Shown in pieces: positions 34,742 to 64,000 of a stretch of 64,000 bases of DNA. Numbering within the stretch: the stretch's first letter is position 1; each line of letters starts with the position of its first letter. The notes under the pieces are model-generated. The model searched no databases, had not been told where the DNA came from, and was given only the letters and a program-made list of their open reading frames with translations. The DNA lies in IMG/VR virus record IMGVR_UViG_3300035145_002457, positions 1-64,000 of that record. One strand, given 5' to 3'. The stretch is from a virus. Made by a program: the position numbers and the translations under genes.

Positions 34742-34749
34742 GGATATGA

Positions 34750-34755
34750 TAAATA
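34750..34755 (+). promoter_or_regulatory. late promoter core TAAATA
   Basis: Intergenic GATAAATA before 34777. Confidence 0.55.
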
Positions 34756-34776
34756 CTTGCAACAAGGGGTTTATAA

Positions 34777-36285: not shown

Positions 36286-36288
36286 ATA
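36281..36288 (+). promoter_or_regulatory. T4-type late promoter TATAAATA
   Basis: Exact T4 late consensus overlapping the stop codon, upstream of 36315. Confidence 0.7.
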
Positions 36289-36314
36289 ACTACGTACTTT
36301 AAAAAGGATAGAAA

Positions 36315-37238: not shown

Positions 37239-37241
37239 GAC

Positions 37242-37270
37242 TTGACAAATTGGTAAAATTGTTATATACT
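37242..37270 (+). promoter_or_regulatory. sigma70-type promoter heading the modification island
   Basis: TTGACA (37242-37247), 17-nt spacer, TATACT (37265-37270), then AGGAG RBS and ATG at 37296. Confidence 0.82.
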
Positions 37271-37295
37271 TTATGCGTATATACAAGGAGTTCCA

Positions 37296-37643
37296 ATGGA
37301 CGAAAGACTAGAAAAAGCATTAGAATTTTCTAAATTTGTTGAGACACAAAACAATCAAAAAACTATTTTTTTGAATCAATTCAAAGAAAATCTAATACAC
37401 TATACCCATGGACATAAATTTACAGCAACTCAACAGCTGATTACATTTGTATCTGTGATTGTTGAATCAGGAGAAGACACTGCAATCATTCTAGATGACA
37501 ATAACCTACCTGTTCTTATTGAAGATTTAAAAGGCTTTATGAGAGAATTAGTTGGTGTATATGTTTTTGCATCACGAAAATATGCTAAAGATTACAACGA
37601 TATCAAGACGCATAGATCAGTTGAAGGGCTAACAAATTTATGA
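37296..37643 (+). CDS. hypothetical protein
   Basis: Good RBS; ATGA coupling to the next gene. Confidence 0.75.
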   Translation: MDERLEKALEFSKFVETQNNQKTIFLNQFKENLIHYTHGHKFTATQQLITFVSVIVESGEDTAIILDDNNLPVLIEDLKGFMRELVGVYVFASRKYAKDYNDIKTHRSVEGLTNL

Positions 37644-38488
37644 CAAATGGTGTATTGCTATTTGCATTCAACAACGAAACTATTGATTATGTAAAACAGG
37701 CTGTTTACTGTGCTAAACAGATTAAGCGGCATCTTGACTTGCCTGTACAAATAGTAACAAACGCTGTAGATTACATCGAAACAGAATTTCCTTTTTATAA
37801 AAAATATATAGAACACGTTACTTATTCACCCGCCCCGGTTGGAGCGTCAAAGACTTTTTATGATGGCATTTATCATAATAAAAAATTGACCTGGAAAAAT
37901 AGCCTTCGTGATAGTGCTTATGATTTAACATTATTTGATAAAACACTTGTATTAGATACAGATTTACTTGTAGGTAATAATAAATTGTTAAAATGTTTTA
38001 ATACAAATGAAGATTTTATGATTGCCAAAGATTACAATATGGTTAATACTACAAAACAAATTGAAGGATTTGATAGGGTTAGTGATAGAACAATTCCAAT
38101 GTATTGGGCAACCATACTTTATTTTACAAAAAGCAAAACAGCAAAAACGGTTTTTGATTTAGCGTCACACATACGAGAAAATTATAATTATTACAGACTT
38201 GTTTATGATATACAAGAAAGCAAGTTTCGAAATGATTTTGCATTTAGTATTGCTGTTCATATAATGCGTGGTTTTACAGAAACCACAGATTGGCCAATGC
38301 GATTACCTACAGACATGTGGGTAAGCACTGATAGAGATGTTTTGTTAGAAAATACTGATGGAACAGCAAGATTACTTGCACAACGCGATTACGACTATCT
38401 TCTAGTAAAACTAAACAATGCCACTTTACATGTTATGAATAAATTTAGTTTGAATAAAGTAATTACTGGAGAATTTGAAAATGAGTAG
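37640..38488 (+). CDS. GT-A fold nucleotide-sugar glycosyltransferase (GT8-like)
   Basis: YDLTLFDKTLVLDTDLL DxD motif; RNDFAFSIA. Confidence 0.65.
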   Translation: MTNGVLLFAFNNETIDYVKQAVYCAKQIKRHLDLPVQIVTNAVDYIETEFPFYKKYIEHVTYSPAPVGASKTFYDGIYHNKKLTWKNSLRDSAYDLTLFDKTLVLDTDLLVGNNKLLKCFNTNEDFMIAKDYNMVNTTKQIEGFDRVSDRTIPMYWATILYFTKSKTAKTVFDLASHIRENYNYYRLVYDIQESKFRNDFAFSIAVHIMRGFTETTDWPMRLPTDMWVSTDRDVLLENTDGTARLLAQRDYDYLLVKLNNATLHVMNKFSLNKVITGEFENE

Positions 38489-39305
38489 AGGGTACTTTGT
38501 TGTTGCACAGAATAATGCTAAAACAGATTATGTTAGACAAGCATACGCTCTTGCATTAAGTATATTGGCACAGTCGCCTGATGCTAACATTAGCGTCATG
38601 ACCAACGATGATGTACCTACCAAATATAAAAAGGTTTTTGATCAGGTAATTGATATACCTTGGGGAGATTTATCAGAAGACTCAAAATGGAAAATTAACA
38701 ACAGATGGAAAATATATCATAGAACGCCGTATAGGCAAACAACAGTATTTGATACTGACATGCTAGTTTTAGATAATTTAGATTATACGTGGACTAGTTT
38801 ACAGCATGTGTCTTACCATTTTACTAAAGATGTACTTACTTACAGGCAAGAACCTGTAACATCACGTTACTATAGGAAAGCATTTGATGCAAACAATCTT
38901 CCTAATCCATATGTAGCAATGTTTCAGTTCAATAAATCAAATGAAACAAAAGAATTTTTTGTGTTACTAGAAATTATAATGAAAAATTGGAAAATTTTTT
39001 ACAGTAAATATGCACCTAATAGTATGCAAAATTGGTGTAGTGTTGATATGTGTGCCGCTATAGCTCTAAAAATACTTGGTACTGCTAATATATCTGTAAA
39101 TAATAACAACATGCTATCTTTTGTTCATTTAAAATCACATGCACAAAATTTGTCTAATCCTTTAATCAAATCCACTGACTTAACGTGTGATGTTGGAGAT
39201 ACAGGATTATTTTTAAATGGATACAAACAAAAAGGTGTGCTTCATTATGTTGATGATGAATTTTTGACAGATGAAATAATTGACTGGTTAGAGGAACAAG
39301 TGTAA
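38481..39305 (+). CDS. GT-A fold glycosyltransferase, paralog of 37640
   Basis: NNAKTDYVRQA, TPYRQTTVFDTDML DxD motif; ATG at 38481 follows a GGAG RBS. Confidence 0.65.
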   Translation: MSRGYFVVAQNNAKTDYVRQAYALALSILAQSPDANISVMTNDDVPTKYKKVFDQVIDIPWGDLSEDSKWKINNRWKIYHRTPYRQTTVFDTDMLVLDNLDYTWTSLQHVSYHFTKDVLTYRQEPVTSRYYRKAFDANNLPNPYVAMFQFNKSNETKEFFVLLEIIMKNWKIFYSKYAPNSMQNWCSVDMCAAIALKILGTANISVNNNNMLSFVHLKSHAQNLSNPLIKSTDLTCDVGDTGLFLNGYKQKGVLHYVDDEFLTDEIIDWLEEQV

Positions 39306-39853
39306 TGTTATATGTGCAATATGACGATGATGGAAGAATACTTTCTGTAACCAATGAATATGATCCAGCTATTTCAAGTTTAGAAGTTGACTTAGAGACT
39401 TATGAAGCATTCAGCAACGGAACAAGAATGTTAGCTGAATACCAAGTTGTTGAAGATTATCACCAAAAAGGAAAAATGCATCTTGTAAATGTAAATGTAG
39501 AGCAAGATGGTTATATTGATCAAGAAAAGGGAATTGTGTCAAAAAAAGATATTACAAAAGAAGGTATAATATTTGAACAACTCGACAAATGCTGGCACAT
39601 ACACAATCATTTGAGTGGTCCAATACCTACACTAATTAATTTAGGAACAGATTATTTTAGGGAATATTACATAGTAGAAGCACGTAATAGATTTGTGCTG
39701 TTAGATACTATTGTTATAGACATGAAAGAATTAGTTAACACAGACAAATTAGTTGTACAAGGACACTCTGCAGATAAAGAAGTAAGTATTGTGTGTTTTG
39801 AAAGTAGACTTAGACACAGACACAAGGTAGGAAAACAAAATGCGTATAATTGA
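39305..39853 (+). CDS. hypothetical protein
   Basis: Coupled ORF (TAATG); no recognised motif. Confidence 0.65.
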   Translation: MLYVQYDDDGRILSVTNEYDPAISSLEVDLETYEAFSNGTRMLAEYQVVEDYHQKGKMHLVNVNVEQDGYIDQEKGIVSKKDITKEGIIFEQLDKCWHIHNHLSGPIPTLINLGTDYFREYYIVEARNRFVLLDTIVIDMKELVNTDKLVVQGHSADKEVSIVCFESRLRHRHKVGKQNAYN

Positions 39854-40754
39854 TTACGATATTATATATTTAAGTTATGACGAACCTAATGCAGAAAAAA
39901 ATTATGCAGATTTGGTAAGCAAAGTTCCTTGGGCAAAACGTATACATGGAGTTGAAGGATCAGACGCGGCACACAAGGCTTGTGCAAAACTTGCAGAAAC
40001 AGATAGATTTATCACTGTGGATGCAGACAATATTATTAATCCTAAGTTTTTAGAGCAAGAGTTAGACATACCTAAGGATAGTGACTTAGAGCACAGTGTT
40101 ATTAGTTGGTGTGGTAGGAACATAATAAATGGACTGATGTATGGTAACGGCGGATTAAAATGTTGGCCAAAAGAATATGTATTAAACATGCGTACACATG
40201 AAAATGCAGACCCTGATAATCCTCAAGCACAAGTTGATTTTTGTTGGGATCTAAAGTACCTACAGCAAAATAGTTGTTATTCAGATGTGTATAACAATGC
40301 AACACCTCAGCAGGCCTGGAGAGCAGGGTTTCGTGAAGGTGTTAAGATGGCACTAGATCAAGGTGTGAAGCCAACAGTTGAAAACTTCTTACAAGGACAT
40401 TGGAAAAATTTGCATAGACTTTGGATTTGGTTAATGATTGGCTCTGATGTTGAAAATGGTCTATGGGCTATCTACGGCGCAAGAGAAGGCTTAGTTAAAA
40501 CAATGTTAACTGATTGGGATTATGTCAATGTAAGAGATTTTGAATATCTCAATAATTTATGGAAAGAAAAAGAATCTGTAGACTCTAAAATGTTATTAGA
40601 AGCAATAGAAATACTAGGTGCTTCATTAATAGATAATTTGGATATACCTATAGGACAAATGCCGTTAGACGAACAGCAAAGTAAATTTTTCAAAACAGTT
40701 TACCAAAATCCTAGCCGTAACCCTAAACAACAATTTGTGATTGATCCAGAATGA
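39840..40754 (+). CDS. GT-A fold glycosyltransferase-like protein
   Basis: FITVDADN DxD motif; YGNGGLKCWP; AWRAGFREG. Confidence 0.6.
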   Translation: MRIIDYDIIYLSYDEPNAEKNYADLVSKVPWAKRIHGVEGSDAAHKACAKLAETDRFITVDADNIINPKFLEQELDIPKDSDLEHSVISWCGRNIINGLMYGNGGLKCWPKEYVLNMRTHENADPDNPQAQVDFCWDLKYLQQNSCYSDVYNNATPQQAWRAGFREGVKMALDQGVKPTVENFLQGHWKNLHRLWIWLMIGSDVENGLWAIYGAREGLVKTMLTDWDYVNVRDFEYLNNLWKEKESVDSKMLLEAIEILGASLIDNLDIPIGQMPLDEQQSKFFKTVYQNPSRNPKQQFVIDPE

Positions 40755-42097
40755 TTGAATTTAAAGATATAAAAGATGAATTAGATCAAGTAGGGTGCGG
40801 ATTTTGCCTTGCAAAATGGTCGCAGGTTACAATACATTTGGCATCAGGTATTAACCATAGTTGTCATCATGTTGCGGCTCATAAAATTCCGTTAGATGAA
40901 CTTGCAAAAAATCCTAATGCTTTGCACAATACACAGTTTAAGAAAAATCAAAGACGTATGATGTTGAAAAATCAACGTCCGCCGGAGTGTGATTATTGTT
41001 GGAGAATAGAAGACAACACAAATGAGTATAGTGACAGGGTAATTAAGAGCAGTGCAAAGTGGAGTCAGATTGACAAAGAAAAAATTATTGCAAGTGATTG
41101 GATGGATGACATATATCCAAGGTATGTAGAAATAAGTTTTTCAAATGTATGTAATTTTAAATGTGCATATTGCGGCCCGCCTTTCAGTAGTAAGTGGGCA
41201 GAAGAAATAAAGCAACATGGATTTTACAAACTTAAAAGAAAACCCTACAATAGGATAAGAGAAGAAGAAGTTCCTATTCCTGAACGTGAAGAAAATCCTT
41301 ATATTGATGCTTTTTGGAAATGGTTTCCTGAAGCTGTTAAGCATATGCTTGTGTTTAGAATAACAGGCGGTGAGCCTTTGCTTAGTAAACACACTAAAAA
41401 AGTTATTCAGTATCTTAGAGACAACCCACAACCTCAATTAGAATTTGCTATTAACACAAATGCTTGTCCACCAGATAAACTTTGGGAAGAATTTGTTGAT
41501 AGTATACGCGAATTAGAAGAAAATAATTGTGTTAAAAATTTCCAACTTTATACAAGTGCTGAAAGTTTTGGAAAACAAGCAGAGTATGTTAGGTATGGAA
41601 TGAATTTTAAACTTTTTGAAAAAAATCTAAAATATTTTATAAAAAATACACATAAAGCAAGAGTATTTTTTATGAGTGCATTTAACATATTAAGTTTACC
41701 AACACTTATTCCGTATTTGCGTTTTCTTGTGTCTATGAAAAGAATGAAAGAAAACACAGTGTTTGTAGATTGGGCGTATGTAAGGCATCCTGAATTTTTA
41801 GACATAAAGGTAGCAGATAAACAGTTGATAGAAAAATACTTAGAGCCTGCACTAGATTTTATGAAAGAACGTAAAAAGAACTCTAATAGATTTATGGATC
41901 ACGAAATATGGAAACTAAAAAGGATATATGAAGACTGTTTGACTAACCTTTCTAGAGAAAATGATTATACACTTGAGTATTGTCAATTTTGGCAATTTGT
42001 AAATGAATATGACAAAAGGCGAGGCACAAATTTCTTAGAAACATTTCCTGAATTCAAGAATTTTTATAAAAAGTGTGGAGTATATGCCAATGTATGA
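40751..42097 (+). CDS. radical SAM protein, N-terminal twitch type (class A)
   Basis: CNFKCAYC, ITGGEP; N-terminal FCLAKW...SCHH...ECDYC. Confidence 0.9.
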   Translation: MIEFKDIKDELDQVGCGFCLAKWSQVTIHLASGINHSCHHVAAHKIPLDELAKNPNALHNTQFKKNQRRMMLKNQRPPECDYCWRIEDNTNEYSDRVIKSSAKWSQIDKEKIIASDWMDDIYPRYVEISFSNVCNFKCAYCGPPFSSKWAEEIKQHGFYKLKRKPYNRIREEEVPIPEREENPYIDAFWKWFPEAVKHMLVFRITGGEPLLSKHTKKVIQYLRDNPQPQLEFAINTNACPPDKLWEEFVDSIRELEENNCVKNFQLYTSAESFGKQAEYVRYGMNFKLFEKNLKYFIKNTHKARVFFMSAFNILSLPTLIPYLRFLVSMKRMKENTVFVDWAYVRHPEFLDIKVADKQLIEKYLEPALDFMKERKKNSNRFMDHEIWKLKRIYEDCLTNLSRENDYTLEYCQFWQFVNEYDKRRGTNFLETFPEFKNFYKKCGVYANV

Positions 42098-42773
42098 TAT
42101 TGCTTTTATAAGTTATAATGAAAAAGAAGCTGATCAAAACTGGGAAAAATTATCAACAAAGTATCCTTATGCAAAACGCACACACGGAGTAAAAGGTATA
42201 CACCAAGCACATATCGCCGCGGCAAATAAAGCAGTAACACCTATGGTATGGTTTGTAGATGCAGATGCTTATATAGAAGATGATTTTGATTTTAGTTATA
42301 TCCCACCAAGGAAGGACCGTGATGCTGTACATGTTTGGCGTAGTCGTAACCCTATTAATGATTTAGTTTATGGATATGGTGGTGTTAAACTATTCCCAAG
42401 GATTGCAACTACAAAAGTGGATGTTAATAAACCTGACATGACTACAAGCATAAGTGAAAAATTTATAGCTATGCCTGAAATAAGCAATACCACTGCTTTT
42501 AATGTAGATCCATTTAGTACTTGGCGCAGTGCATTTAGGGAATGTGCAAAATTAGCAAGCAAAATAATTGATAGACAAAGGGAGGATGAAACAGATGAAA
42601 GACTCAAGACTTGGACAACCGTGGGACACGATAGAGAGTTTGGTGAATATGCGATTAGAGGTGCTCATGACGGTATGGAGTTTGGCCTTTCTAGGGGGTC
42701 TGATCTTCGGTTAATTAATGATTACAAATGGTTAAAGGAACAGTTTGATGAAAACCCAAGAATTATTAGATAG
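42084..42773 (+). CDS. GT-A fold glycosyltransferase-like protein, paralog of 39840
   Basis: WFVDADA; YGYGGVKLFP; TWRSAFRECAKL; start is 42084 or 42090. Confidence 0.6.
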   Translation: MPMYDIAFISYNEKEADQNWEKLSTKYPYAKRTHGVKGIHQAHIAAANKAVTPMVWFVDADAYIEDDFDFSYIPPRKDRDAVHVWRSRNPINDLVYGYGGVKLFPRIATTKVDVNKPDMTTSISEKFIAMPEISNTTAFNVDPFSTWRSAFRECAKLASKIIDRQREDETDERLKTWTTVGHDREFGEYAIRGAHDGMEFGLSRGSDLRLINDYKWLKEQFDENPRIIR

Positions 42774-43656
42774 ATACGAACTGTTATATCCGAAAAATAC
42801 ATATATTTCAGATTTACGCAGAGCATATATTGATAAAGATATCAGTAGTATATTTAGATTGCTTCCTGATACTGTTAACGGCACAAAAGATGATTTACGT
42901 AAAGCAGTTTTAGAAAACAATTTACACAGTATATTTAGATTATGCGAAAATGATAATTTAAGAAAATTATTGCTTGAAGATAATGTTTGGAAGCTCTGGC
43001 CGTTACTTGAAAAATATGTGGACACCCATTTTACCTCAGCATTCAAAAGATTTTTTGCAGAGAATATTAAAATTAACAATCATTGTTTTAGCAGAGGTCA
43101 ACTACAAAGTAAATTATGGTTAATCGAGGAACTCGAGAACACAGGAGTTGATCTTGGTACTGTGTTTATTTGTGCAGGATGGTATGCTACACTTGCTACT
43201 ATGATTTTTGAAAGCAATATGAACGTAGAAAAAATACGTAGCTTTGACATTGACTCAAGTTGTGCTGGAGTTGCTGAAATATTTAACAAACCTTGGGTAA
43301 AGGATGATTGGCAATTTAAAGCATGTACACAGGATATAATGGAAATTGAATGGCAAGGACATAACTATCCTGTTAAACGTAATGACGGCAGTATTTGTAT
43401 GCTATATGATTCACCAGATACAATAATTAACACTAGTTGCGAACACATAAAAGACTTTGATACATGGTTTAGAAAAATACCTGAAGGTAAACTTATATGT
43501 TTACAGAGCAATAATTACGTTGCCCTGGAAGAACATGTAAATTGTGTAAAAGATAGTTTACATTTTGAAGAAATGACACCATTTAGTAAAGTATTGTTTA
43601 CAGGAGAATTGCCGTTAGAAAAATACACGAGGTATATGAGAATTGGAATTAAGTAA
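42748..43656 (+). CDS. class I SAM-dependent methyltransferase-like protein with N-terminal repeats
   Basis: VFICAGWYATLA (motif I-like), IRSFDID, DTIINTSCEH. Confidence 0.6.
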   Translation: MKTQELLDRYELLYPKNTYISDLRRAYIDKDISSIFRLLPDTVNGTKDDLRKAVLENNLHSIFRLCENDNLRKLLLEDNVWKLWPLLEKYVDTHFTSAFKRFFAENIKINNHCFSRGQLQSKLWLIEELENTGVDLGTVFICAGWYATLATMIFESNMNVEKIRSFDIDSSCAGVAEIFNKPWVKDDWQFKACTQDIMEIEWQGHNYPVKRNDGSICMLYDSPDTIINTSCEHIKDFDTWFRKIPEGKLICLQSNNYVALEEHVNCVKDSLHFEEMTPFSKVLFTGELPLEKYTRYMRIGIK

Positions 43657-43867
43657 TCTTACAGTTAGACAATTGCAACAAGAAAGTGCTAGGGCTTTAA
43701 GTACAATGCAAGCTACTAATAATAACATTTATCAGTTTAATAAACAAGCACATCACAACAGCCATAATTGGTATGCGGCTGTTATAGATTGGTATGTAAA
43801 AGAATATGGAGATTTACCTAGCCGTGCAGGCCCTGGAAAAAATGTAAGGTTAGTTTTAGATGAATAA
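43643..43867 (+). CDS. hypothetical protein (74 aa)
   Basis: TTG-start ORF overlapping both neighbours and filling the gap. Confidence 0.6.
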   Translation: MELSNLTVRQLQQESARALSTMQATNNNIYQFNKQAHHNSHNWYAAVIDWYVKEYGDLPSRAGPGKNVRLVLDE

Positions 43868-44996
43868 AATTGTTTTAAAATTTGTTGATGACAACCAATA
43901 CAAACTAAATGTTGCAGTAAAAAATTTTAATTTATCAGCAAACACTGGTGCTAGAATAAATTCTTATTTTAGTACTTCTTTAAATAGTTTATATGACTCT
44001 GTAGATGCTATAGAAGATAATAATATTTTTGACCCTAATAATTTTTATATTTTTCCTATATTCTATTTTCACGAAGAAACAGATCCACAATACGAATATT
44101 GGGTGTCTTTCCTAAAATATTTTGCAAAAAATAACTATGAAAGATTGAAAAACAAAAACACATGTCTTTGTATTTGTGATTTGTTTGAAAGCAGTAGAAA
44201 TCTTGTTAAAGTTGCAGAAGAAATTAAATTTAAATATCCAGAAATAAAAATATGGATATTGACTGCTGATAAAAAACTATCTTCTAAAATTGTAAAAGTA
44301 ATTTATAACGATGTATGGATATCCCAATTCCACCCAAAGACATCCGTAATGCCGTACAAGCCAAAAAAATTATACATTAATCTTACTAGAGTAGCTAGGT
44401 ATCATAGGTGTGTGTTAGCTGATAGTTTAATTAGTAACAATTTACTAAAAATTGGATACAATACCTGGGGTGATGTTTATGATGCTTTTGAAATGTATAA
44501 ACAAGATCATCCTAAAACTAAAATTGCACAAGCAAAATTTGATGTTTTAGATATTGAAGATCTTAGTAAAACAAATCCTAATGATGTAGTTCCAGAATCT
44601 CACTGTAAAAAAAGTTTTTTATATCTTGCAACGGAAACACATGTAGATAGCGGATATATGTTTTTTAGTGAAAAGGTATACAAACCTATTGGTCTTGGTA
44701 TGCCGTTTATTACACTAGGCAATCCAGGTACATTAGAGGATTTAAGACAGCGTGGATTTTTTACTTTTAGTGAATGGTTTGATGAAAGTTATGATTTAGA
44801 CTTACCTTTACAAAAACGCATAGACATTATATGCAAAAACTTAATTACACTTTCAAAATATAGAGCAGATGATCTTATAAAAATACGTAAAGAAATGAAA
44901 GGTATTTTAGAATATAATCAGCAGTTATATGCACTACTACAAAAGAAAAATAGTTTAAAACAAACATTGCGTCTAGCCGCAGAAGGAATACTATGA
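43860..44996 (+). CDS. putative GT-B-like glycosyltransferase
   Basis: C-terminal FLYLATET...FFSEKVYKPIGLGMPFITLG...GFFTF, resembling the SEK motif of GT10-like donor-binding domains. Confidence 0.45.
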   Translation: MNKIVLKFVDDNQYKLNVAVKNFNLSANTGARINSYFSTSLNSLYDSVDAIEDNNIFDPNNFYIFPIFYFHEETDPQYEYWVSFLKYFAKNNYERLKNKNTCLCICDLFESSRNLVKVAEEIKFKYPEIKIWILTADKKLSSKIVKVIYNDVWISQFHPKTSVMPYKPKKLYINLTRVARYHRCVLADSLISNNLLKIGYNTWGDVYDAFEMYKQDHPKTKIAQAKFDVLDIEDLSKTNPNDVVPESHCKKSFLYLATETHVDSGYMFFSEKVYKPIGLGMPFITLGNPGTLEDLRQRGFFTFSEWFDESYDLDLPLQKRIDIICKNLITLSKYRADDLIKIRKEMKGILEYNQQLYALLQKKNSLKQTLRLAAEGIL

Positions 44997-46976: not shown

Positions 46977-46984
46977 GTAAGTAT

Positions 46985-51875: not shown

Positions 51876-51876
51876 G

Positions 51877-56815: not shown

Positions 56816-57399
56816 ATATATTCTATTTGAATAACACTCCTACAAAATTCTACAAAACACTAAAAAAGATTGCAGACAAATATAAAAACAAACCATTTGA
56901 AATAATAATGTCTGATAGACATCATTCAACTGATTTAAGCGAAGAAGATTGCTTTGTACTTAATCAATTTTTACCTTTGCAATCTCCTGGTATATCCTTT
57001 AATATGATTAATCAAGCGTTAGAAACTTCTCATATAGATAGACAACGAAAAACAGCATTGCAAGTAGCAGTAAAATCAGATCCAATGAAACACTTTGCAT
57101 ATGCTGTAAAAAATGAATTTTTAGATGAACTTGTGCCACTTGAAATTGCTGATGGTTTTAGAAACAAGCGATATGTGGATTGGGAAAATGGCGGAGATGA
57201 GCGTCCTATGTTTTACCATTATAATCCGTGTTATAATGATCATATAGCAATAGAGAAAATGAAAGCATATCTTTGTAATACTACTTTACCGCATGGAGGG
57301 TTGCATACTATACCAGGCAAACATGAAAGATTATTTTTTAGTTTTTCCTTTTTACAAACAATAGATGAAGTTAAAGAAAAATTTAAGGATTGGCTCTAA
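56812..57399 (+). CDS. 2OG-Fe(II) oxygenase/cupin-like protein, paralog of 53258
   Basis: SHIDRQR...PHGG...ERLFFSFSF. Confidence 0.5.
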   Translation: MNIFYLNNTPTKFYKTLKKIADKYKNKPFEIIMSDRHHSTDLSEEDCFVLNQFLPLQSPGISFNMINQALETSHIDRQRKTALQVAVKSDPMKHFAYAVKNEFLDELVPLEIADGFRNKRYVDWENGGDERPMFYHYNPCYNDHIAIEKMKAYLCNTTLPHGGLHTIPGKHERLFFSFSFLQTIDEVKEKFKDWL

Positions 57400-58499
57400 T
57401 GGGATTACTTTGTAGCGCATTAAAAAATAGCATAAGTATAGCCCCTACGGGTGAAATCCGTCCTTGCTATTTGCATGATTTTAATCATGACTACAATGTT
57501 GATAAAATATCTATACAAGATTATAGAGAAAAAGTAGCTCTACCTATGTATAAAGAAATGAAAAAAACAGGAAAATTACCAAAAGGTTGTTGGAAGTGTA
57601 AGTCGATCAAACATTATGAAATATTTAACAAGTATTTGAAATGGTATGAGGCAAACGAAAGCGAAGAATTATTAATGTTAGATATTTCATTAAGTAATCT
57701 TTGTAATAACGGTTGTATAATGTGTAATAAGAAAAATAGCTCTTATTATAAAAAAATAGAAAAGAATATGTTTGTATTTCCTATACAAACCGGAGCGCAA
57801 GAGCTTAAAATTAATCATTCAAAAAAAGTTTTTGAAGATTTGTGTAGTAATGTAAAGTCATTAAAAGAGTTATATATTAAAGGCGGAGAACCCACTTTAG
57901 ATACTAAAGTACAAGACATATTAGATTATCTTATTAGTATTGATAAGACTGATACTGTTATAAAATTAAACACAAACTTAACAAATACAAATAAAAGATT
58001 TATGGATAGTATTAGTAAATTTCCTTATAAAAATGTTAGTTTCAGTATCGATGCAAAAGGAGAATTAAACAATGTATTGCGGCATCCTAGTAAGTTTAAT
58101 AGTGTGATTAAAAATTTGCAAAGATGGACAGAAATTAAAACCGAACAAGATCGATATAATATTTCTAGTGTGATAAGCATTTATAATCTATTTAAATATC
58201 CAGAATTAAAAAAATATTTAAAACAAAATTTTAATGAATATATTCATTTCTATCACATTAATATTTTGCAAACACCAGAATATATGGATATCTCTCATGT
58301 TAATAAAAAAATATTCAATCAAGCTCTTTTACTCTATGATGTTAGCGATAGAAAAACACTAATAGATTATTATAATAATAAAAAGACAAAAAATAATATC
58401 AATGATTACGAGGTATTTACAAAACGAAGTATACAATGGTTTAATAGTAGAGGATATGATCTATCTATAACTGGTAATCCGTTTTTTGAAGGAATATAA
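57399..58499 (+). CDS. radical SAM protein, N-terminal twitch type (class A)
   Basis: LCSAL...RPC...CWKC; CNNGCIMC; IKGGEP; TAATG coupling at 57397-57401. Confidence 0.88.
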   Translation: MGLLCSALKNSISIAPTGEIRPCYLHDFNHDYNVDKISIQDYREKVALPMYKEMKKTGKLPKGCWKCKSIKHYEIFNKYLKWYEANESEELLMLDISLSNLCNNGCIMCNKKNSSYYKKIEKNMFVFPIQTGAQELKINHSKKVFEDLCSNVKSLKELYIKGGEPTLDTKVQDILDYLISIDKTDTVIKLNTNLTNTNKRFMDSISKFPYKNVSFSIDAKGELNNVLRHPSKFNSVIKNLQRWTEIKTEQDRYNISSVISIYNLFKYPELKKYLKQNFNEYIHFYHINILQTPEYMDISHVNKKIFNQALLLYDVSDRKTLIDYYNNKKTKNNINDYEVFTKRSIQWFNSRGYDLSITGNPFFEGI

Positions 58500-58503
58500 T
58501 AAA

Positions 58504-59616
58504 ATGTATCATACATTCGAAACTGTACAAGACATGCATGTAGAAATAACTAATCGCTGTAATGCGGCTTGTCCTATGTGTGCAAGAAATGATTTCGGAG
58601 GAAAAACTAAAGAAGATCTTGAGCTTGACGAATGGAGCAAGGATGATATTGATCGTATTTTTAACGGACAGTTTCCTAAATTAGAAAATGTAATGTTTTG
58701 CGGCACTCACGGAGATCCATGTGTAGCAGAGCATACTTTATATGCTATAGATAAAATTAAAACAAACACAGATGCAACAGTTGAATTTTATTCTAATGCT
58801 AGTATGCGTACTCCTGAATGGTGGAGTAATCTTGGAAGTTTCATGAATCAAAAGAAACCAGACCATTGGCATTATAGGAAAAACGATCTTGCAATTTTTA
58901 GTATTGACGGCTTAGCCGACACAAATCATTTATATAGACGAAGAACTAATTTTGAAAAAATTATGGAAAATGCAGAAGCATATCTAAAAGCAGGTGGTAT
59001 TGCACGTTGGGATTTTATTGTGTTTAAACACAACGAACATCAAGTAGAAGAAGCAGAAGCACTTGCTAAAAAGATGGGATTCAAACAGTTCCGCATACGC
59101 AAAACAAGCCGTTTTGATTACTCACCTGACGGACCAGACAAATGGCGTGTGAAGGACAAAAACGGTAATGTAGAATACTATCTTGAACCTCCTGGCGAAA
59201 AGTATCGTAATCCTCAAAGTCAAAAGTTTCAAGAACTTACAGAGCAATACGGTACTATAGAAAAGTATTATGATGTTGCACCTATTGAGTGTTTGTATAA
59301 AAACGAATTCCGTAGAATATATGTAAATGCATATGCACAAGTATTCCCTTGCTGTTATATCTCAGACGATAGTTATCCCCATAAAAATAAAATTTACCTT
59401 GACACACAAGAAAAGATATTCAAAAAGTATGGGGTAGGCTTCAACAGTTTACGTAAATATGATTGGAATGATATTCTTAATCATCCATGGTTTGCTGGAG
59501 ACTTAGAACAAAGTTGGCAATCAGATCTTGCAGGAGGAAAATTAATGCGTTGTGCAAGAACATGTGGTAAAGGATATTCACCTATAAAAAGCCAAAGTAA
59601 GGATACAAACTTATGA
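58504..59616 (+). CDS. radical SAM protein (class B)
   Basis: CNAACPMC, CGTHGDP, SIDGLADTNHLYR; C...FPCC...CARTC. Confidence 0.9.
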   Translation: MYHTFETVQDMHVEITNRCNAACPMCARNDFGGKTKEDLELDEWSKDDIDRIFNGQFPKLENVMFCGTHGDPCVAEHTLYAIDKIKTNTDATVEFYSNASMRTPEWWSNLGSFMNQKKPDHWHYRKNDLAIFSIDGLADTNHLYRRRTNFEKIMENAEAYLKAGGIARWDFIVFKHNEHQVEEAEALAKKMGFKQFRIRKTSRFDYSPDGPDKWRVKDKNGNVEYYLEPPGEKYRNPQSQKFQELTEQYGTIEKYYDVAPIECLYKNEFRRIYVNAYAQVFPCCYISDDSYPHKNKIYLDTQEKIFKKYGVGFNSLRKYDWNDILNHPWFAGDLEQSWQSDLAGGKLMRCARTCGKGYSPIKSQSKDTNL

Positions 59617-60791
59617 ATCCAGTAGCGAGTTATTTTAAATTTAATCCAACAGGAGCATTTTCTGTGGATTGGTATATAGGAAAACGTTGCAACTTTAGTT
59701 GTAGTTATTGTGTCGATTATTTGCACGATAATCATTCACCTCATGTGCCTTTAGAGAAAATGAAAATACTTGCAGACGCTATTATCGACAAACATGGTAA
59801 AAATGTATTTTGGAGTTTGACTGGAGGAGAACCTACAGTGAATCCTAAATTTATGGATCTTTGCAAATACATAAAAAAAGAAAGAGGTGCAAGATTTGTT
59901 AGTCTTACTACTAACGGAACAAGGACAGCCGCCTACTACAAAGAATTATATCAATACATAGATGGCATTACACTAAGTTTTCATTTTGAACATATACAAG
60001 ATAGAATAGATGAGTATATTGACAAATGTATACAGATAGAAGACTGGCGTAGAGAATGGAATGGTATAATGGAAGAAACAGAAAACTTTCCAGATTGGGA
60101 TAATGGTAAAGTAAGGAAAACATTAATTCTTCGTTTTATGGTATACCCAGGGCAGTTTGAAAATGTAGAACGCATGGAAAAAGCATTTAGAGATCATGGC
60201 ATAACAAATATTGAACACAGATATATACGACCACCAGGTGGAAATTCAAATGAACTTATGCCTGATGTAAAGTTAGACTTTGGTAAAAATCACGATAAAA
60301 TGGATCCTAAAAAATTAGTTTCTTCTGAAGATAAAGCAGAAATAAAAGCAATTGAAACAAGAGAAAAACAATTCTATAAAGAAGGCGAAAAAGAAAAAAT
60401 TAAAGATCTATATACATCTAAAATTACACCAGACAAGCGTAAATTAAAATTTTGGTTTGTTGATGAAAATGGTGAATATAAAGATGAAGATTTTCATTAT
60501 AATGAATTAAATTTTGATAAAAAGAATAATTATGAAGGATGGTTATGTTGGGCAGGTGTAAAGCATCTCAAGGTGACACCAACAGGAGATATCTATATAG
60601 GTAGTTGTCATGTAGGTGGCAAACGTGGTAACATTTACGAAATAGAAAGTTTAGATTTGCCTACTGAGCCTATACGTTGTCCTAAATGGCGTTGTACTGA
60701 TAACTTAGATTTAAAAGTTCCAAAAATTAAAGATTGGGATCATTATCATTTAGTCAAAGATATGATAGAGTGGACTGATCAAAAGTCATAG
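59613..60791 (+). CDS. radical SAM protein (class C)
   Basis: CNFSCSYC, LTGGEPT; GWLCWAG...SC...GNIY...RCPKWRCTD. Confidence 0.9.
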   Translation: MNPVASYFKFNPTGAFSVDWYIGKRCNFSCSYCVDYLHDNHSPHVPLEKMKILADAIIDKHGKNVFWSLTGGEPTVNPKFMDLCKYIKKERGARFVSLTTNGTRTAAYYKELYQYIDGITLSFHFEHIQDRIDEYIDKCIQIEDWRREWNGIMEETENFPDWDNGKVRKTLILRFMVYPGQFENVERMEKAFRDHGITNIEHRYIRPPGGNSNELMPDVKLDFGKNHDKMDPKKLVSSEDKAEIKAIETREKQFYKEGEKEKIKDLYTSKITPDKRKLKFWFVDENGEYKDEDFHYNELNFDKKNNYEGWLCWAGVKHLKVTPTGDIYIGSCHVGGKRGNIYEIESLDLPTEPIRCPKWRCTDNLDLKVPKIKDWDHYHLVKDMIEWTDQKS

Positions 60792-61915
60792 TAACTACAA
60801 ACTTCTTTAAAATTTTGATTCCTTGACTTATCCCAGAATTCTGTATGTGACCAAAATTTATCTAGTAAGTGTGTTTTGTCTTCGCCGTCCATATAAGTTG
60901 TGATATAATTACACAGATTTTTAATCTTTTCATTTGTATAGTTATAATTTGCATATTTGTCTCTAATAATTTGTTTTTGTTTTTCTGGTAGGACAGTCAC
61001 ACTCAAATATAATGGATAGGTTAGATGTGTAGGATTAATTATAATGCCTCTTTTGTCTAACCATTCTAATGTTTCTGGCAAGTGATAAGCGTTGTAAATA
61101 GTTACTGTTGGTCTTGCAATAACAGTCATTCCTATTTCTTCACTTACTTCAACATATTTTTCAATGTTCTTAAGAGCTTCTTCGTGTTTTGTTAAGTGCC
61201 GTTGATATTCGTTTTCTTTGCCTACAATGCTATCAAGGCTGACAGCAAGTTCAACGTGATCAAACTGTTTCCAAGTTTCTACAATTTTTTTCTTAGGCCA
61301 TACTGTACAATTTGTACTGTAATTTAACCTTATATTTTTTGCATAACCTTTCTCAACAGCATGTTCTAATAGCGTCCAATGATCTTTGATTATTAAAGGT
61401 TCGCCACCTGTAAATTTAATATACTTCATATCTTTAAGATGCGGATATATGCTATCTAAATTTGCATGGGTATGTCTAGTTTTAGCAAAGGTTTTGCCGT
61501 GATATTCTTGTTCTTCGTCGAATAGTTTATGACTATATCTACTATCGCACATTCTGCACATTAGATTACAATCGTTACTTAGACTTAGTTCTAGGTATTC
61601 TAATTTGTAATCTTTAGTGTTAACAGTATGAGTGCCTACCTTAGGGTGTTCATTTAATCTCATACGTAGGCTTTTTTTGTTGTTATCTTCTTCTTCATAA
61701 CAACGTCTACAACCTTCTAACCGTTCTCCTGCAAGTATGCGTTTACGAAGATCGTTTTGAAAATCGCTGTTAAAAATATTTTGAATAGTGTCGTTATCAA
61801 GAGTGTGTTCTTTAGGTCTGTGATCTTCTAAAAACCTACAACAAGGCTTAACACGCCCTGTACCATCTACCATTTGATGATTCCATAACACTGAACAGAA
61901 AGTTTTGCTGACCAT
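60779..61915 (-). CDS. radical SAM protein, N-terminal twitch type (class A), inverted orientation
   Basis: FCSVLW...KPCC...CRRC; CNLMCRMC; FTGGEP. Confidence 0.9.
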   Translation of the reverse strand: MVSKTFCSVLWNHQMVDGTGRVKPCCRFLEDHRPKEHTLDNDTIQNIFNSDFQNDLRKRILAGERLEGCRRCYEEEDNNKKSLRMRLNEHPKVGTHTVNTKDYKLEYLELSLSNDCNLMCRMCDSRYSHKLFDEEQEYHGKTFAKTRHTHANLDSIYPHLKDMKYIKFTGGEPLIIKDHWTLLEHAVEKGYAKNIRLNYSTNCTVWPKKKIVETWKQFDHVELAVSLDSIVGKENEYQRHLTKHEEALKNIEKYVEVSEEIGMTVIARPTVTIYNAYHLPETLEWLDKRGIIINPTHLTYPLYLSVTVLPEKQKQIIRDKYANYNYTNEKIKNLCNYITTYMDGEDKTHLLDKFWSHTEFWDKSRNQNFKEVCSYYDF

Positions 61916-61928
61916 AAATATATTTATA
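61914..61928. promoter_or_regulatory. palindromic late promoter element (TATAAATA on minus, TAAATA on plus)
   Basis: ATAAATATATTTAT (61914-61927) is a perfect palindrome; minus-strand TATAAATA (61928-61921) lies 5 nt before the ATG at 61915. Confidence 0.6.
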
Positions 61929-61945
61929 TACGTGGTTTATTTGTC

Positions 61946-61974
61946 TTGCAAAACTGGTGTTAAGGTGCTATAAT
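61946..61974 (+). promoter_or_regulatory. sigma70-type extended -10 promoter, probably leaderless
   Basis: TTGCAA (61946-61951), 17-nt spacer, TG-n-TATAAT (61966-61974); ATG 5 nt later with no SD. Confidence 0.75.
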
Positions 61975-61979
61975 ATATT

Positions 61980-63101
61980 ATGAATGAAGACTTAAAATGG
62001 AGCAATTATGACTTCTCTAAGATCCCTTTTGATGACATTGTCAGTGTGGGTCAACGGACTTTGCTTTATCGTGATATTTTTACTGTATCATGGCTACTTG
62101 GAAGGTTCTGTAACTACAGATGCTCCTACTGCTGGCCTTATGCCAGAAGCGATCGTAAAGACCACCGTCCTACCGAGCTCTGCTTGCTTACAGTGGATGA
62201 AATCAAACGTCAAGCTAGACTCAACGGTTTCAATTCTTTCCACTTCTCCTTGTCAGGAGGAGAACCTACTTTCCATCCTGGATACTTGGACATACTAAAG
62301 CATCTAGCAGATGATGTAGCAAATACAAATTATACTAGTATACACATGACTAGTAATTGTAGTCGTCCTATGAAATGGTTTAAAACGTATGTTGAATATG
62401 CAAAGCCCTTTCATAGAGCAAGTATAACAGCAAGTCTGCACACAGAACATGTAAATACAAAGGAGAAGATGCAGGATTTTGCAGACAAACTAATCTTGTG
62501 TCAAGAGCATGATGTACAAATTACAATCAATCAAGTTATGGTTCCAGAATGGTTTGAAAGAGATTGGGAAAACGCTTTATTCTTTCACGAGCAAGGAATC
62601 AATGTCACACTCAAGCCTCAATCGGATCCGACTGCGTCAAGGGTGGTTGATGGATACACTGGGGATCAACTTAAAAAACTTTACAACGGCATGCCACAAA
62701 GAGCATACACAGAAAGCAAACGTAAATGGCAAGAAAGACCTAAACCGTCATTCGAAGTACCTAAAGGAATAATGGGTAAAAATGATGCAAGTGTGCCTTG
62801 GCACATGCAAGTAGAATTAAAAGACTCTAAAGGTAAAAAGTGGTATATGGACCAAGCAGAACGCTTTAATGCCTTTAATTTCAACAATTTTGAAGGATGG
62901 CGGTGTAACGCCGGTTTTAGCGGAATAATAATACGGGAGCCTGACGGTTCGGTAAAAAGGAGTTATTCTTGCCATGATGCACCCCTTGGTAACATAGAAA
63001 CAGGTTTTAACCTATTTAAAGAGCCAAAAAAATGTATTACAAAAAGTTGCGTAAGTAGTGCTGATAGTAAAATACCTAAAGTAAAAAATGGAAACATATA
63101 G
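61980..63101 (+). CDS. radical SAM protein (class C)
   Basis: CNYRCSYC, LSGGEPT; GWRCNAG...SC...GNI...CITKSCVSSAD. Confidence 0.9.
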   Translation: MNEDLKWSNYDFSKIPFDDIVSVGQRTLLYRDIFTVSWLLGRFCNYRCSYCWPYARSDRKDHRPTELCLLTVDEIKRQARLNGFNSFHFSLSGGEPTFHPGYLDILKHLADDVANTNYTSIHMTSNCSRPMKWFKTYVEYAKPFHRASITASLHTEHVNTKEKMQDFADKLILCQEHDVQITINQVMVPEWFERDWENALFFHEQGINVTLKPQSDPTASRVVDGYTGDQLKKLYNGMPQRAYTESKRKWQERPKPSFEVPKGIMGKNDASVPWHMQVELKDSKGKKWYMDQAERFNAFNFNNFEGWRCNAGFSGIIIREPDGSVKRSYSCHDAPLGNIETGFNLFKEPKKCITKSCVSSADSKIPKVKNGNI

Positions 63102-63906
63102 TATATTAAGTTATAATCGTACTGGTAGTACAGTAGTAGGACAATGCCTGGCAGGTCATTTTGGCCAAGAATATCAAGCAGAAATTACAAATATTCCTAG
63201 TGTATTAATGCGTTATGATGACAACGGAAATGATATAAATGTCCCTTTTAAAAAACCATTACCTGAAGGTACCTATGTAAAAACATATGAGATACAAGAA
63301 GGATATGTTAAAAGATATTTAGAATTTGACAATCCGGAACCATTTATATTTGGTACATCACGTTTTACAAAAGAAGTAGAAAAAAGAAAAAAATTATTAA
63401 AATATAATTGTAAAAGCAAAAACAAAAGTATTTTTAAAATTCAACCGCAAAGTTTTATGGAAAATTTTAATGAACCTAAAATACTTGATGGATATAGATT
63501 CATTTTTTGTGCTAGACGTGATATTAGAGAACAAATATTAAGTTACCTAGTAGCAATGGAAACAAGATTATTTCATATTGGCTATAATGATCAAATTATA
63601 CATCTTGATAAAATAACAATAAAACGTAAATATTTTGATTTTTGTTTAGAAGGATTAAAACTTACCAACAAATTATTTGAATATTACAAATCAACTAACC
63701 AAATTGGTAAAATTATATTTTATGAAGACTGGCAAGATGATGTATCTAAAGTGCTTCCATTATTAGGATTCAAACATACCCCAACAAAAACCTTTAAAAA
63801 GATAAAATATAGTGTAGGTTCTAAACATAATCTTGTAAATAATTTAGAACAAGTATACAAATGGATGGATAATGCAGAAGAATTTAATTACACCTATAGA
63901 CTTTAA
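63088..63906 (+). CDS. PAPS-dependent sulfotransferase-like protein (Stf0-like)
   Basis: N-terminal SYNRTGST 5'-PSB-like loop, RRDIREQILS 3'-PB-like motif, IFYED. Confidence 0.6.
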   Translation: METYSILSYNRTGSTVVGQCLAGHFGQEYQAEITNIPSVLMRYDDNGNDINVPFKKPLPEGTYVKTYEIQEGYVKRYLEFDNPEPFIFGTSRFTKEVEKRKKLLKYNCKSKNKSIFKIQPQSFMENFNEPKILDGYRFIFCARRDIREQILSYLVAMETRLFHIGYNDQIIHLDKITIKRKYFDFCLEGLKLTNKLFEYYKSTNQIGKIIFYEDWQDDVSKVLPLLGFKHTPTKTFKKIKYSVGSKHNLVNNLEQVYKWMDNAEEFNYTYRL

Positions 63907-64000
63907 AGTTGACATAGAACGATTGAAATATGATAGTGCAAAGGCTATCGAAACATTTCCGTTTAACAATCATAACCAAATTTGCTTTGTTAATACTTCG
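63872..64000 (+). CDS. partial ORF running off the window end
   Basis: Open frame MQKNLITPIDFKVDIERLKYD...NQICFVNTS overlapping the previous stop. Confidence 0.5.
   Translation, partial: MQKNLITPIDFKVDIERLKYDSAKAIETFPFNNHNQICFVNTS

Follow-up and report, generated by a model that had tools for sequence, protein, structure and literature searches.

The host recognition cluster (HRC) described in pelagimyophages and cyanomyophages is a hypervariable region in which fibre genes stand together with GT8 enzymes, a UDP-glucose dehydrogenase, and radical S-adenosylmethionine (SAM) cassettes; in T4-like pelagiphage, it lies between VrlC and the neck gene gp14, and the core genes of these phages include an Asp/Asn β-hydroxylase (Zaragoza-Solas et al. 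2020, PMC7029224). Modification of the host O-chain is proposed in that paper, and the radical SAM genes are neither counted nor classified. Here we describe an island of ~32 kb, rich in radical SAM and glycosyltransferase (GT) genes, in an uncultured phage represented by the 84,586-bp IMG/VR record IMGVR_UViG_3300035145_002457 (CheckV completeness 21%). The first 64 kb of this contig are the stretch of DNA under analysis (the window); the island spans ~37.3 to 69.7 kb of the contig and has fibre genes on both sides. Like the HRC, it is large and hypervariable, follows a giant gene within the structural module, and combines fibres, GTs, and radical SAM genes at a fixed locus. Unlike the T4-like phages that carry the HRC, this phage is nearest to the jumbo phages Atu_ph07, SCTP-2, and PA5oct (34–38% identity in the wedge protein). 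An earlier note, made from the letters of the window alone, had held that no characterised phage pathway has this composition. This stands insofar as we found no analysis of such radical SAM arrays in the literature; radical SAM cassettes as such are mentioned in the HRC paper, which was the only relevant result of literature searches on phage radical SAM, twitch, jumbo-phage arrays, and Bdellovibrio radical SAM. We read the island, with a probability of about 45%, as a self-contained cytoplasmic pathway that would build a sugar-containing structure and then edit it by radical chemistry.

BtrN, NeoN, and BlsE are twitch/SPASM radical SAM enzymes that act on sugars. The island resembles these systems in combining a radical SAM core with one auxiliary Fe-S domain and in clustering such enzymes with sugar-handling ones. 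It differs in that the auxiliary domain is N-terminal, in that there is no significant match to solved structures, and in that the BlsE model reaches only 25 bits (E 9.6e-6) against a cut-off of 400. The earlier note had compared the island with BtrN and NeoN; no island radical SAM protein is a demonstrated relative of either, and the three core radical SAM proteins matched no solved structure in a sequence search of the PDB. The closest curated family is NF033640 (N_Twi_rSAM, “twitch domain-containing radical SAM protein”), in which an auxiliary cysteine domain (C...CC...CxxC) precedes the CxxxCxxC core. Seven island proteins share this arrangement and score 176–423 bits, and the island has two further, uncurated radical SAM groups besides (B and C below).

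Virion glycosylation in PBCV-1 (A64R) and Che8 offers a second comparison. There, as here, soluble viral GT-A enzymes are found beside or among structural genes, the matches being at the level of the fold only, and we know of no radical SAM genes in either system. Radical SAM/SPASM systems for RiPPs (peptides made by the ribosome and modified after translation), including the His-Xaa-Ser (Hxs) type, likewise contain SPASM-type arrays and a small partner domain that is free or fused. Unlike in those systems, no RiPP recognition element (RRE)/PqqD domain, Cys/His/Ser-repeat substrate, protease, or exporter was found among 38 island and flanking open reading frames (ORFs) or in searches of their tails. 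Unlike Wzx/Wzy- or ABC-dependent polysaccharide loci, the island has no initiating membrane transferase, flippase, exporter, polymerase, or ligase detectable by Pfam or hydrophobicity among the same 38 proteins; such components could come from the host.

Radical SAM genes of the island

Genes are named here by their leftmost coordinate. The 14 CxxxCxxC proteins listed in the earlier note are all intact ORFs with one CxxxCxxC motif each, and all match PF04055 at E ≤ 7.6e-5. Ten of the 14 reach the Pfam cut-off (29.5 bits), and 45909, 46985, 50296, and 53883 lie below it (23.4–25.6 bits). Two of the genes begin at earlier start codons in the ORF list, both TTG (57390 rather than 57399 and 58486 rather than 58504). 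The island was also correctly expected to continue past the window: further genes extend to a B12-binding radical SAM gene at 68248–69723 on the minus strand (PF04055 63.4 bits, CxxxCxxC), followed by an Mtd_N fibre-like gene. The island total is thus 15 radical SAM genes, 14 in the window and the B12-type gene beyond it. All-against-all BLAST and NCBIfam searches divide them into four groups, which we call A, B, C, and B12-type.

Family A comprises seven genes, all over the NF033640 cut-off of 170 bits (175.9–423.1 bits): 40751 (40751..42097, +, 316 bits, motif CNFKCAYC), the core gene 46985 (46985..48388, +, 423 bits, the best NF033640 match), 48975 (48975..50303, +, 283.6 bits), 51877 (51877..53274, +, 362.5 bits), 54988 (54988..56265, +, 283.9 bits), 57390 (57390..58499, +, 175.9 bits, the shortest member), and 60779 (60779..61915, 323.8 bits), the last being the sole inverted (minus-strand) gene of the island within the window. 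In five of the seven, Pfam SPASM matches residues ~6–96, N-terminal to the Radical_SAM match. In the family A alignment, Cys-9, Cys-92, and Cys-95 are invariant (7/7) and the CC pair is present in 5/7. NF033640 is large: at E ≤ 1e-30, public data contain 7,108 cluster representatives (clustering at 50% identity); a literature search for characterised members found none, and we know of none. We note that many of the best family A relatives are ~800–870 residues long with two matched stretches, i.e. tandem double N_Twi radical SAM proteins, and that in Synechocystis salina (L127:9125-13918) a frame of 1597 residues with family A similarity is called.

Family B consists of the core gene 45909 (45909..46976, +), 53883 (53883..54995, +; E 2e-64 to 45909, PF04055 25.6 bits), 58486 (58486..59616, +; E 8e-70 to 45909), and the short, family B-like 50296 (50296..51183, +; CTLQCPKC at residue 101, E 5.7e-20 to 45909, PF04055 23.4 bits). 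Family C groups 44993 (44993..45922, +, PF04055 39.8 bits) with 59613 (59613..60791, +, 57.4 bits) and 61980 (61980..63101, +, 53.2 bits), the island protein closest to its Bdellovibrionota ortholog. Families B and C score 21–46 bits against NF033640 and stand outside it, and neither matched a specific curated NCBIfam model.

Conserved core of the island in related phages

An IMG/VR scan with 46985 returned at least 103 related stretches, of which 80 loci were kept (68–94% identity). Counting homologs at ≥50% identity, 46985 is present in all 80 loci, 45909 in 79, 42075 (a GT-A gene) in 55, 42745 (methyltransferase-like) in 44, 39840 (GT-A-like) in 28, and 61980 in 13, where it is 74–91% identical; most other island genes have few such homologs or none. 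The gene maps reveal a constant core in the order GT-A gene, methyltransferase-like gene, an ORF of 74 amino acids, radical SAM-B, and radical SAM-A, often with a homolog of the island's dehydrogenase (see below) just upstream. Around this core, the contents vary, with 2–14 radical SAM genes and unmatched proteins of 200–300 residues per locus (loci ≤21 kb); in four whole related records, we counted 16, 11, 18, and 23 PF04055 matches. The earlier note had named a lack of co-occurrence with GTs as an outcome that would speak against its reading. What we find is association of GT and radical SAM genes in the 80 phage loci, in the cultured phage described below, and in Bdellovibrionota chromosomes.

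Two more complete genomes extend this comparison. A 330-kb relative (93% complete) keeps the order baseplate wedge, giant gene, fibres, the 36315–39840 block, an island of ~48 kb, an Mtd_N-like fibre gene, and MoxR/VWA genes; its island lies at the same locus between fibre genes, and the relative has four paralogs of 43860. Further, the cultured Ralstonia phage RsoM2USA (343.8 kb), a distant soil phage, carries a minimal module in which all genes are annotated as hypothetical. It opens with a fibre-like gene, after which come counterparts of 37296, 37640, and 38475, a single gene without a match, and counterparts of 39840, 40751 (radical SAM-A), 42075, and 42745, at 31–47% identity; the 39840 homolog is 47% identical, and the family A radical SAM homolog of 40751 (ORF349), 38% identical, is located between two GT-A genes. 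The module adjoins the genes ORF356, ORF359, and ORF361, which are given as virion proteins, on the strength of mass spectrometry of the most abundant bands, in the paper on this phage (PMC8504454).

Glycosyltransferase-like and other sugar-linked genes

All four DxD glycosyltransferases proposed in the earlier note are supported. The core gene 42075 (42075..42773, +) was modelled with AlphaFold2 (AF2; mean predicted local distance difference test, pLDDT, 90.4) and compared using Foldseek, which gave a probability of 1.00 to WrtF, ppGalNAc-T, PBCV-1 A64R, and SunS. Template modelling (TM) scores against the PDB were 0.39–0.45 for the top-ranked matches and 0.32–0.35 for several lower ones; in a viral library, the fold matched the Che8 glycosyltransferase (Q855A2), and TM scores there and to the A64R structure (2p6w) were 0.34–0.44. 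The acidic motif of the alignment contains an invariant Asp-64 inside V-D-A-D-N. On this model, 42075 is a predicted GT-A fold glycosyltransferase. Gene 39840 (39840..40754, +) is its GT-A-like paralog (31% identity, E 5e-29) and falls in the same alignment. The other two, 37640 (37640..38488, +) and its paralog 38475 (38475..39305, +; 31% identity over 115 residues), are putatively GT8-like (GT-A) by a joint profile of their families, A11, whose match to glycogenin-2 (E 4.6e-5, 26.5 bits) is confined to the first 100 positions, the DTD motif included; the single sequences gave no Pfam match. A relationship between the GT8-like and the GT-A profiles was considered and rejected (hhalign probability 0.3).

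The designation of 43860 (43860..44996, +) as GT-B-like is moderately supported for its C-terminal half. In an alignment of a structural model with VIA-align, residues 150–378 superimpose on GT-B domains of exostosin, FUT9/FUT11, and T4 α-glucosyltransferase with Z 9.0–9.7 and a root-mean-square deviation of 3.2–3.9 over 150–170 residues (model pLDDT 62), the T4 DNA α-glucosyltransferase alignment having Z 9.0. The N-terminal half was modelled poorly (pLDDT <50). A paralog of 43860, likewise GT-B-like, lies beyond the window at contig 67288–68268. Its neighbour on the minus strand (contig 66175–67236) encodes a nucleotide-sugar 6-dehydrogenase with the N-terminal NAD-binding and the central domain (PF03721 66.8 bits, PF00984 59.7 bits; GDP-mannose 6-dehydrogenase E 1.5e-14). 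This protein is short (353 residues) and does not match the C-terminal UDP-binding domain.

The core gene 42745 (42745..43656, +) had been called a methyltransferase. What remains of this is a lead from a protein atlas, a score of 0.94 to a viral cluster that has Methyltransf_31 in 21% of its members; the protein, which has an invariant NTSCEH motif, did not match Pfam, PHROG, or the PDB, and we refer to it as class I methyltransferase-like. Sequence searches of the PDB with the GT-A and the methyltransferase-like profiles also returned nothing.

A conserved 74-residue ORF and its fusions

Between 42745 and 43860, and overlapping both neighbours, lies a 74-residue ORF (43643..43867, +) that was absent from the earlier note. 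It is conserved along its whole length, with a mean column identity of 73% and invariant AHHNS, WY, G.LPS, and GP.K, and contains no cysteine. Its profile matches 66 of 84 phage loci and none of 85 other loci, namely 77 genome-scan loci, regions from 5 Bdellovibrionota genomes, the stretch of RsoM2USA, and two contig pieces beyond the window. Against the PDB, the profile gave chance-level matches only (designed repeat proteins and antibody chains).

Among longer proteins, the profile has 14 matches, and seven were read in sequence. The domain is found at the N terminus of a family B radical SAM protein (P0138 and P0144), at the C terminus of a 44993-like, i.e. family C-like, radical SAM protein (P0139, P0141, and partial P0140, judged by eye), at the C terminus of a UDPG/GDP-Man dehydrogenase (P0151), and at the C terminus of an uncharacterised protein (P0150). 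We infer the same architectures for P0142, P0143, P0145, and P0146 from length and Pfam only. Frameshifts in the assembly, where genes overlap, could have produced some of these fusions; their occurrence in several distinct clusters, and a linker in P0144 that differs from the rest, speak for real proteins. Because the domain is fused both to radical SAM enzymes and to a sugar dehydrogenase, it is part of the pathway, probably as a partner or an adaptor. A possible counterpart within the longer methyltransferase-like protein of a Bdellovibrionia was rejected, as the comparison showed that the domain is not part of it. In one subgroup of relatives (L069–L077, e.g. L070:5657-5884), a strongly hydrophobic 75-residue protein, with three segments by eye, directly follows the 74-residue ORF on its 3′ side; it is absent from the window.

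Related clusters in bacteria

Scanning species-representative genomes with the 60779 family yielded 77 loci, most from metagenome-assembled genomes (MAGs) of Bdellovibrionota, including contigs of 0.9–3 Mb, and many of these cellular loci hold mixed arrays of A, B, C, and B12-type genes. Five Bdellovibrionota genomes (1.9–3.1 Mb) contain 7–16 NF033640 matches over the cut-off, often as tandem runs of 4–8, compared with 0 of 14 control genomes; we found no paper on NF033640 expansion in Bdellovibrionota. In one Bdellovibrionia contig (45% GC), 13 CxxxCxxC genes are flanked by an EPSP-synthase-family gene and a seryl-tRNA synthetase. Identity to the Bdellovibrionia orthologs is 66% for 61980, 54% for 46985, 53% for 58486, 46% for 45909, 43% for 56258 (a short-chain dehydrogenase/reductase (SDR)-like gene), 42% for 42745, 37% for 42075, 36% for the B12-type radical SAM, and 31% for 67288. 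The 56258 ortholog is inside the cluster, and that of 42745, aligned over 193 residues, is beside it. In a second Bdellovibrionota chromosome, the orthologs of 61980 and 45909 are 58% and 44% identical, and Bdellovibrionota orthologs of 46985 are at 54–55%. Further, the 42075 profile finds GT-A genes (E ~1e-70) in four of the five Bdellovibrionota genomes, and in two of the five the GT-A ortholog adjoins the best family A (N_Twi) match. The chromosomes thus have orthologs of most core genes but no 74-residue ORF.

Elsewhere, single family A genes stand beside an NDP-hexose 2,3-dehydratase (Poseidonocella), an ABC-2 exporter and a GDSL enzyme (a Chitinophagales MAG), and a GT2 gene (Paenibacillus). 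One further sequence, L088 (JAUHVL010000001.1, 349,524 bp, filed as “MAG: bacterium”), has homologs of 42745, 39840, 46985 (58%), 61980 (67%), and 42075; it is of jumbo-phage size, and the bacterial label may be a misfiling of a phage genome.

Accessory genes of the island

The remaining enzyme calls of the earlier note fared unevenly. For the SGNH-like protein 48334 (48334..48978, +), profile A10 gives a weak match to TesA (E 0.006) over blocks I–II, with invariant GCS, N, and H columns. The nitroreductase call for 51183 (51183..51875, +) passes the PF00881 cut-off (24.4 versus 23.5 bits) over residues 8–56 only, and 51183 has no homolog in the 80 related loci. Likewise, the SDR assignment of 56258 (56258..56815, +; 185 residues) extends to the C-terminal half alone (adh_short 27.7 bits, profile positions 111–191). 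For the two genes described as HxD...H oxygenase-like, 53210 (53210..53896, +) and its relative 56812 (56812..57399, +), an alignment of 11 sequences that includes both (A9) has invariant His-103, Asp-105, His-189, Arg-199, and Ser-203, a motif basis for the label 2-oxoglutarate/Fe oxygenase-like. A family match was not obtained, either for 53210 in Pfam and PHROG, for 56812 in the family libraries, or for the profile in the PDB. The sulfotransferase call for 63088 (63088..63906, +; 272 residues) is unsupported by Pfam and PHROG, neither of which gave a match; by eye, we see only RTGST and RRD..EQ..S motifs, which may be sulfotransferase signs.

Three further genes carry no family match. Behind the last tail-fibre gene, 36315 (36315..37238, +) encodes a conserved protein of 307 residues that matches neither Pfam nor PHROG and has homologs at the same place in 13 loci, the 330-kb relative, and RsoM2USA. 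The conserved 115-residue protein of 37296 (37296..37643, +) has no family match and has a 35% identical RsoM2USA homolog in the same order, and the 182-residue protein of 39305 (39305..39853, +), also without a family match, has homologs in seven related loci. At the window's end, a cupin gene of the Asp/Arg β-hydroxylase type (contig 63872–64396, +, with 63872–64000 in the window) matches PF05118 when the whole ORF is scored (28.5 bits). An esterase-like gene lies beyond the window at contig 64836. In PHROGs, 16 of the 20 island ORFs other than radical SAM genes had no match, two matched families of unknown function (E ~0.003–0.01), and two matched named ones (esterase/lipase and FabG-like); seven protein clusters that were looked up bore generic names only. 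By Kyte-Doolittle hydrophobicity (19-residue window, >1.6), 2 of the 38 island and flanking proteins exceed the threshold, both with a peak of 1.64: 42745 (one window) and the minus-strand 65532 (four windows). None of the 38 appears to be multi-spanning.

Genomic context and promoters

The contig is a jumbo-phage fragment, and family searches identified upstream genes of the T4-like/jumbo myovirus type (SbcCD-like nuclease subunits, a gp55-type late sigma factor, a baseplate hub-lysozyme, and a baseplate wedge). The isolated phages nearest by wedge protein are Atu_ph07, SCTP-2, Phosso, PA5oct, and CBB, and no isolated phage with near-identical DNA was found. After the wedge come an ORF of 4978 residues (14851–29787, +) and three tail-fibre genes (30432–36285). 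The giant ORF has a homolog of 4603 residues at the same position in the 330-kb relative (48% identity); its similarity to the available part of RsoM2USA ORF361 is weak (26% identity over 123 residues only). The right-hand border is the Mtd_N fibre-like gene (contig 69751–70983, −). Past it lies a pair encoding a DUF2201 metallopeptidase/VWA-like protein and a MoxR-type AAA ATPase (contig 72519–75059, −), 69–82% identical in the 330-kb relative.

Sequencing runs from 13 studies, with the labels wetland, salt-marsh, estuary, marine, and freshwater, contain near-identical DNA; no RNA datasets with near-identical sequence were listed. In two runs that cover the island at or near 100% identity, there is little or no depth over the fibre gene 32819–34741 (region 33001–34868), which suggests that this gene is swapped between otherwise identical strains. 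The earlier note had considered that the region might be a misassembled host fragment. The GC content is even along the contig (0.30–0.39), with no step at the island borders, synteny is kept in the 330-kb relative, and a contig assembled independently from another study's run equals window positions 34899–42638 with 0 differences over 7,740 nucleotides, crossing from the last fibre gene into the island.

The island's position directly after the tail-fibre genes, as the earlier note had it, is confirmed, whereas co-transcription with them is not supported. At the island head, there is a sigma-70-like promoter, TTGACA-N17-TATACT (37242..37270, +), matching 11 of 12 consensus positions; a similar element precedes the 37296 homolog in 10 of 13 relatives, with exact TTGACA in nine. 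Because of this conserved promoter motif, we consider that the island is probably its own transcription unit, which the host RNA polymerase would transcribe ahead of the late fibre genes. A 64-nucleotide divergent control region (61916..61979) holds a second sigma-70-like element, TTGCAA-N17-TATAAT, before 61980. The T4-type late-promoter-like box TATAAATA (36281..36288, +) stands 27 nucleotides before 36315. On both strands of the 84.6-kb contig, it has two copies, versus ~26 expected from base composition, the second being at 61921, six nucleotides before the start of the minus-strand gene 60779. The box is thus strongly avoided, and its placement would fit a functional late-promoter box, as expected for a phage with a gp55-like sigma factor.

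Discussion

We propose that the island encodes a pathway that would assemble a sugar-containing structure and then edit it by radical chemistry, because six GT-like genes and a nucleotide-sugar 6-dehydrogenase gene stand among its radical SAM genes, because the association of radical SAM, GT, and sugar-dehydrogenase genes recurs in aquatic phages, a soil phage, and bacteria, and because the 74-residue domain is fused to both radical SAM enzymes and a sugar dehydrogenase. The enzyme families are those assigned above; the order of the steps and their chemistry are inferred. The nucleotide-sugar 6-dehydrogenase would supply activated sugars, which the six glycosyltransferase-like enzymes (two GT8-like, two GT-A, and two GT-B-like) would transfer to an acceptor. 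The core proteins 46985 (radical SAM-A), 45909 (radical SAM-B), 61980 (radical SAM-C), 42075 (GT-A), and 42745 (methyltransferase-like), in phages together with the 74-residue domain, could then make a constant modified moiety. Finally, the variable radical SAM paralogs, the HxD...H proteins, the esterase-like and SDR-like proteins, and the B12-type radical SAM may diversify this moiety between phages, possibly by oxidation, epimerisation, C-methylation, or deoxygenation. Of the earlier proposal of a virus-encoded, radical-tailored modification of a glycan or protein, radical SAM-rich glycan tailoring is thus the best supported part. Our preferred candidates for the target are fibre or other virion proteins of the phage itself, since the locus is fixed in the fibre module even in the distant soil phage and since no gene for a lipid carrier or export was found.

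Several observations weigh against this proposal. No island radical SAM protein has a characterised relative, so that a sugar substrate is argued from neighbouring genes, and SPASM/twitch radical SAM enzymes are at least as often peptide maturases. The GT assignments are fold-level or weak (GT-A TM 0.45 against the PDB, GT-B-like pLDDT 62, and GT8 E 4.6e-5). The placement of B beside A genes is not significant by itself, being reached in 1,393 of 20,000 shuffles. The sigma-70-like promoter argues for early or middle expression, which would suit work on the host surface or on nucleotides as well or better, and the orthologous clusters of bacteria cannot target a virion. Near the clusters of the five Bdellovibrionota genomes, we found neither Wzx (PF01943) nor Bac_transf (PF02397), and ABC-2 occurs as one gene, beside a stray family A copy; a link of these clusters to surface-sugar loci is unsupported. 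Finally, one Paenibacillus context of family A is lipid-like, with two ketosynthases and an SDR.

Some of these points lead to the view that the target is the host cell envelope, with early rewriting of a surface glycan (O-chain, capsule, or glycoprotein) through the host's lipid carrier and exporters so as to block superinfection by rival phages. This is the published reading for the GTs of the pelagimyophage HRC, and the GT8-like genes would belong to a family tied there to lipopolysaccharide (PMC7029224). The conserved sigma-70-like promoter would suggest early expression, the target of the orthologous clusters in bacterial chromosomes must be cellular, and a hypervariable gene set at a constant site is reminiscent of surface-glycan loci. 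Set against this, the island lacks an initiating transferase, a flippase, a polymerase, a ligase, and any multi-spanning membrane protein, and its module stays beside fibre genes across very distant phages. Its phage is also a relative of jumbo myoviruses of the lytic type, in which seroconversion is less established. On balance, we hold an envelope target to be unlikely, though it deserves to be taken seriously.

A role in protein or peptide maturation would explain the arrays differently. The radical SAM enzymes would act, in a RiPP-like or other fashion, on a fibre or virion protein or on the 74-residue protein, crosslinking, epimerising, or methylating its residues, the GTs forming a separate step. 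SPASM/twitch enzymes are typical maturases, and the island genes have weak NCBIfam matches to PapB, StsB, WgkB, HxsC, and CefB. The Asp/Arg β-hydroxylase-like gene would fit this role, the B12-type radical SAM scores with RiPP C-methyltransferases among other families, and the 74-residue domain, which stands alone or is joined to various enzymes, behaves as one for recognition or as an adaptor would. However, all these specific peptide-maturase models score far below their cut-offs, and PqqD/RRE domains were found by Pfam in 0 of the 38 island and downstream ORFs. Tails of the Cys-His, His-x-Ser, poly-Ser, and RGRR-ended kinds are absent from the contig, and the first three are absent from 166 related loci as well (the eight RGRR-ended frames there are all chance ones in cellular loci). 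Small ORFs that are rich in cysteine or end in repeats were not found either, though a precursor of an unrecognised kind is conceivable. The 74-residue protein, with no cysteine and conservation over its full length, has no variable core, and one of its fusion partners is a sugar dehydrogenase. These points make a peptide substrate rather improbable.

In the third alternative, the sugar would be joined to a base or a metabolite instead of a surface, and the pathway would yield a modified nucleotide, hypermodified DNA, or a small, diffusible molecule that is nucleoside-like. Expression may be early, all enzymes are soluble, and the GT-B-like model aligns to T4 DNA α-glucosyltransferase. Family C has weak matches to the nucleotide-acting enzymes viperin, MoaA, and QueE, and the order dehydrogenase, GT, radical SAM recalls cytosylglucuronate chemistry, although the BlsE match is far below its cut-off. 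These radical SAM matches cover the shared core only. Further, six GTs and a hypervariable complement would suit a polymer or glycan better than one metabolite, and 7–16 family A copies per Bdellovibrionota chromosome are hard to square with a DNA mark, so a nucleotide product seems to us very doubtful. That the island is an artefact, i.e. a misassembled host fragment or a set of decaying, functionless paralogs, draws support from the four radical SAM genes under the Pfam cut-off and from nothing else that we found, and is already refuted, as far as sequence data allow, by the even GC content, the CxxxCxxC motifs and open frames of 15/15 radical SAM genes, the same locus in the 330-kb relative, the independent junction contig, and core proteins that are 68–94% identical in 80 loci.

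Returning to the proposal of sugar assembly and radical editing, a bolder form of it, which we put forward as doubtful, is that a programmable system of diversification is common to jumbo phages and predatory Bdellovibrionota, in which fast-evolving radical SAM arrays would rewrite C–H bonds of a sugar coat on fibres that recognise host or prey, and in which the 74-residue adaptor would recruit the enzymes in phages. If true, this would mean lineage-specific surface chemistry, glycan editing by enzymes of a new class, and a further layer in the determination of host range.

Approximately one-third of the 84.6-kb fragment is devoted to enzymes of uncharacterised chemistry, and NF033640, a large family without a characterised member, reaches 7–16 copies per Bdellovibrionota genome. 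The ecological reach is considerable, with related islands in at least 103 IMG/VR stretches and habitats from wetland to marine, and the minimal module of the cultured phage RsoM2USA gives an experimental handle at the bench. Should the product be displayed on fibres or on the host surface, host range or superinfection exclusion in abundant aquatic phages would have a new determinant, and the island would be a source of new radical sugar chemistry.

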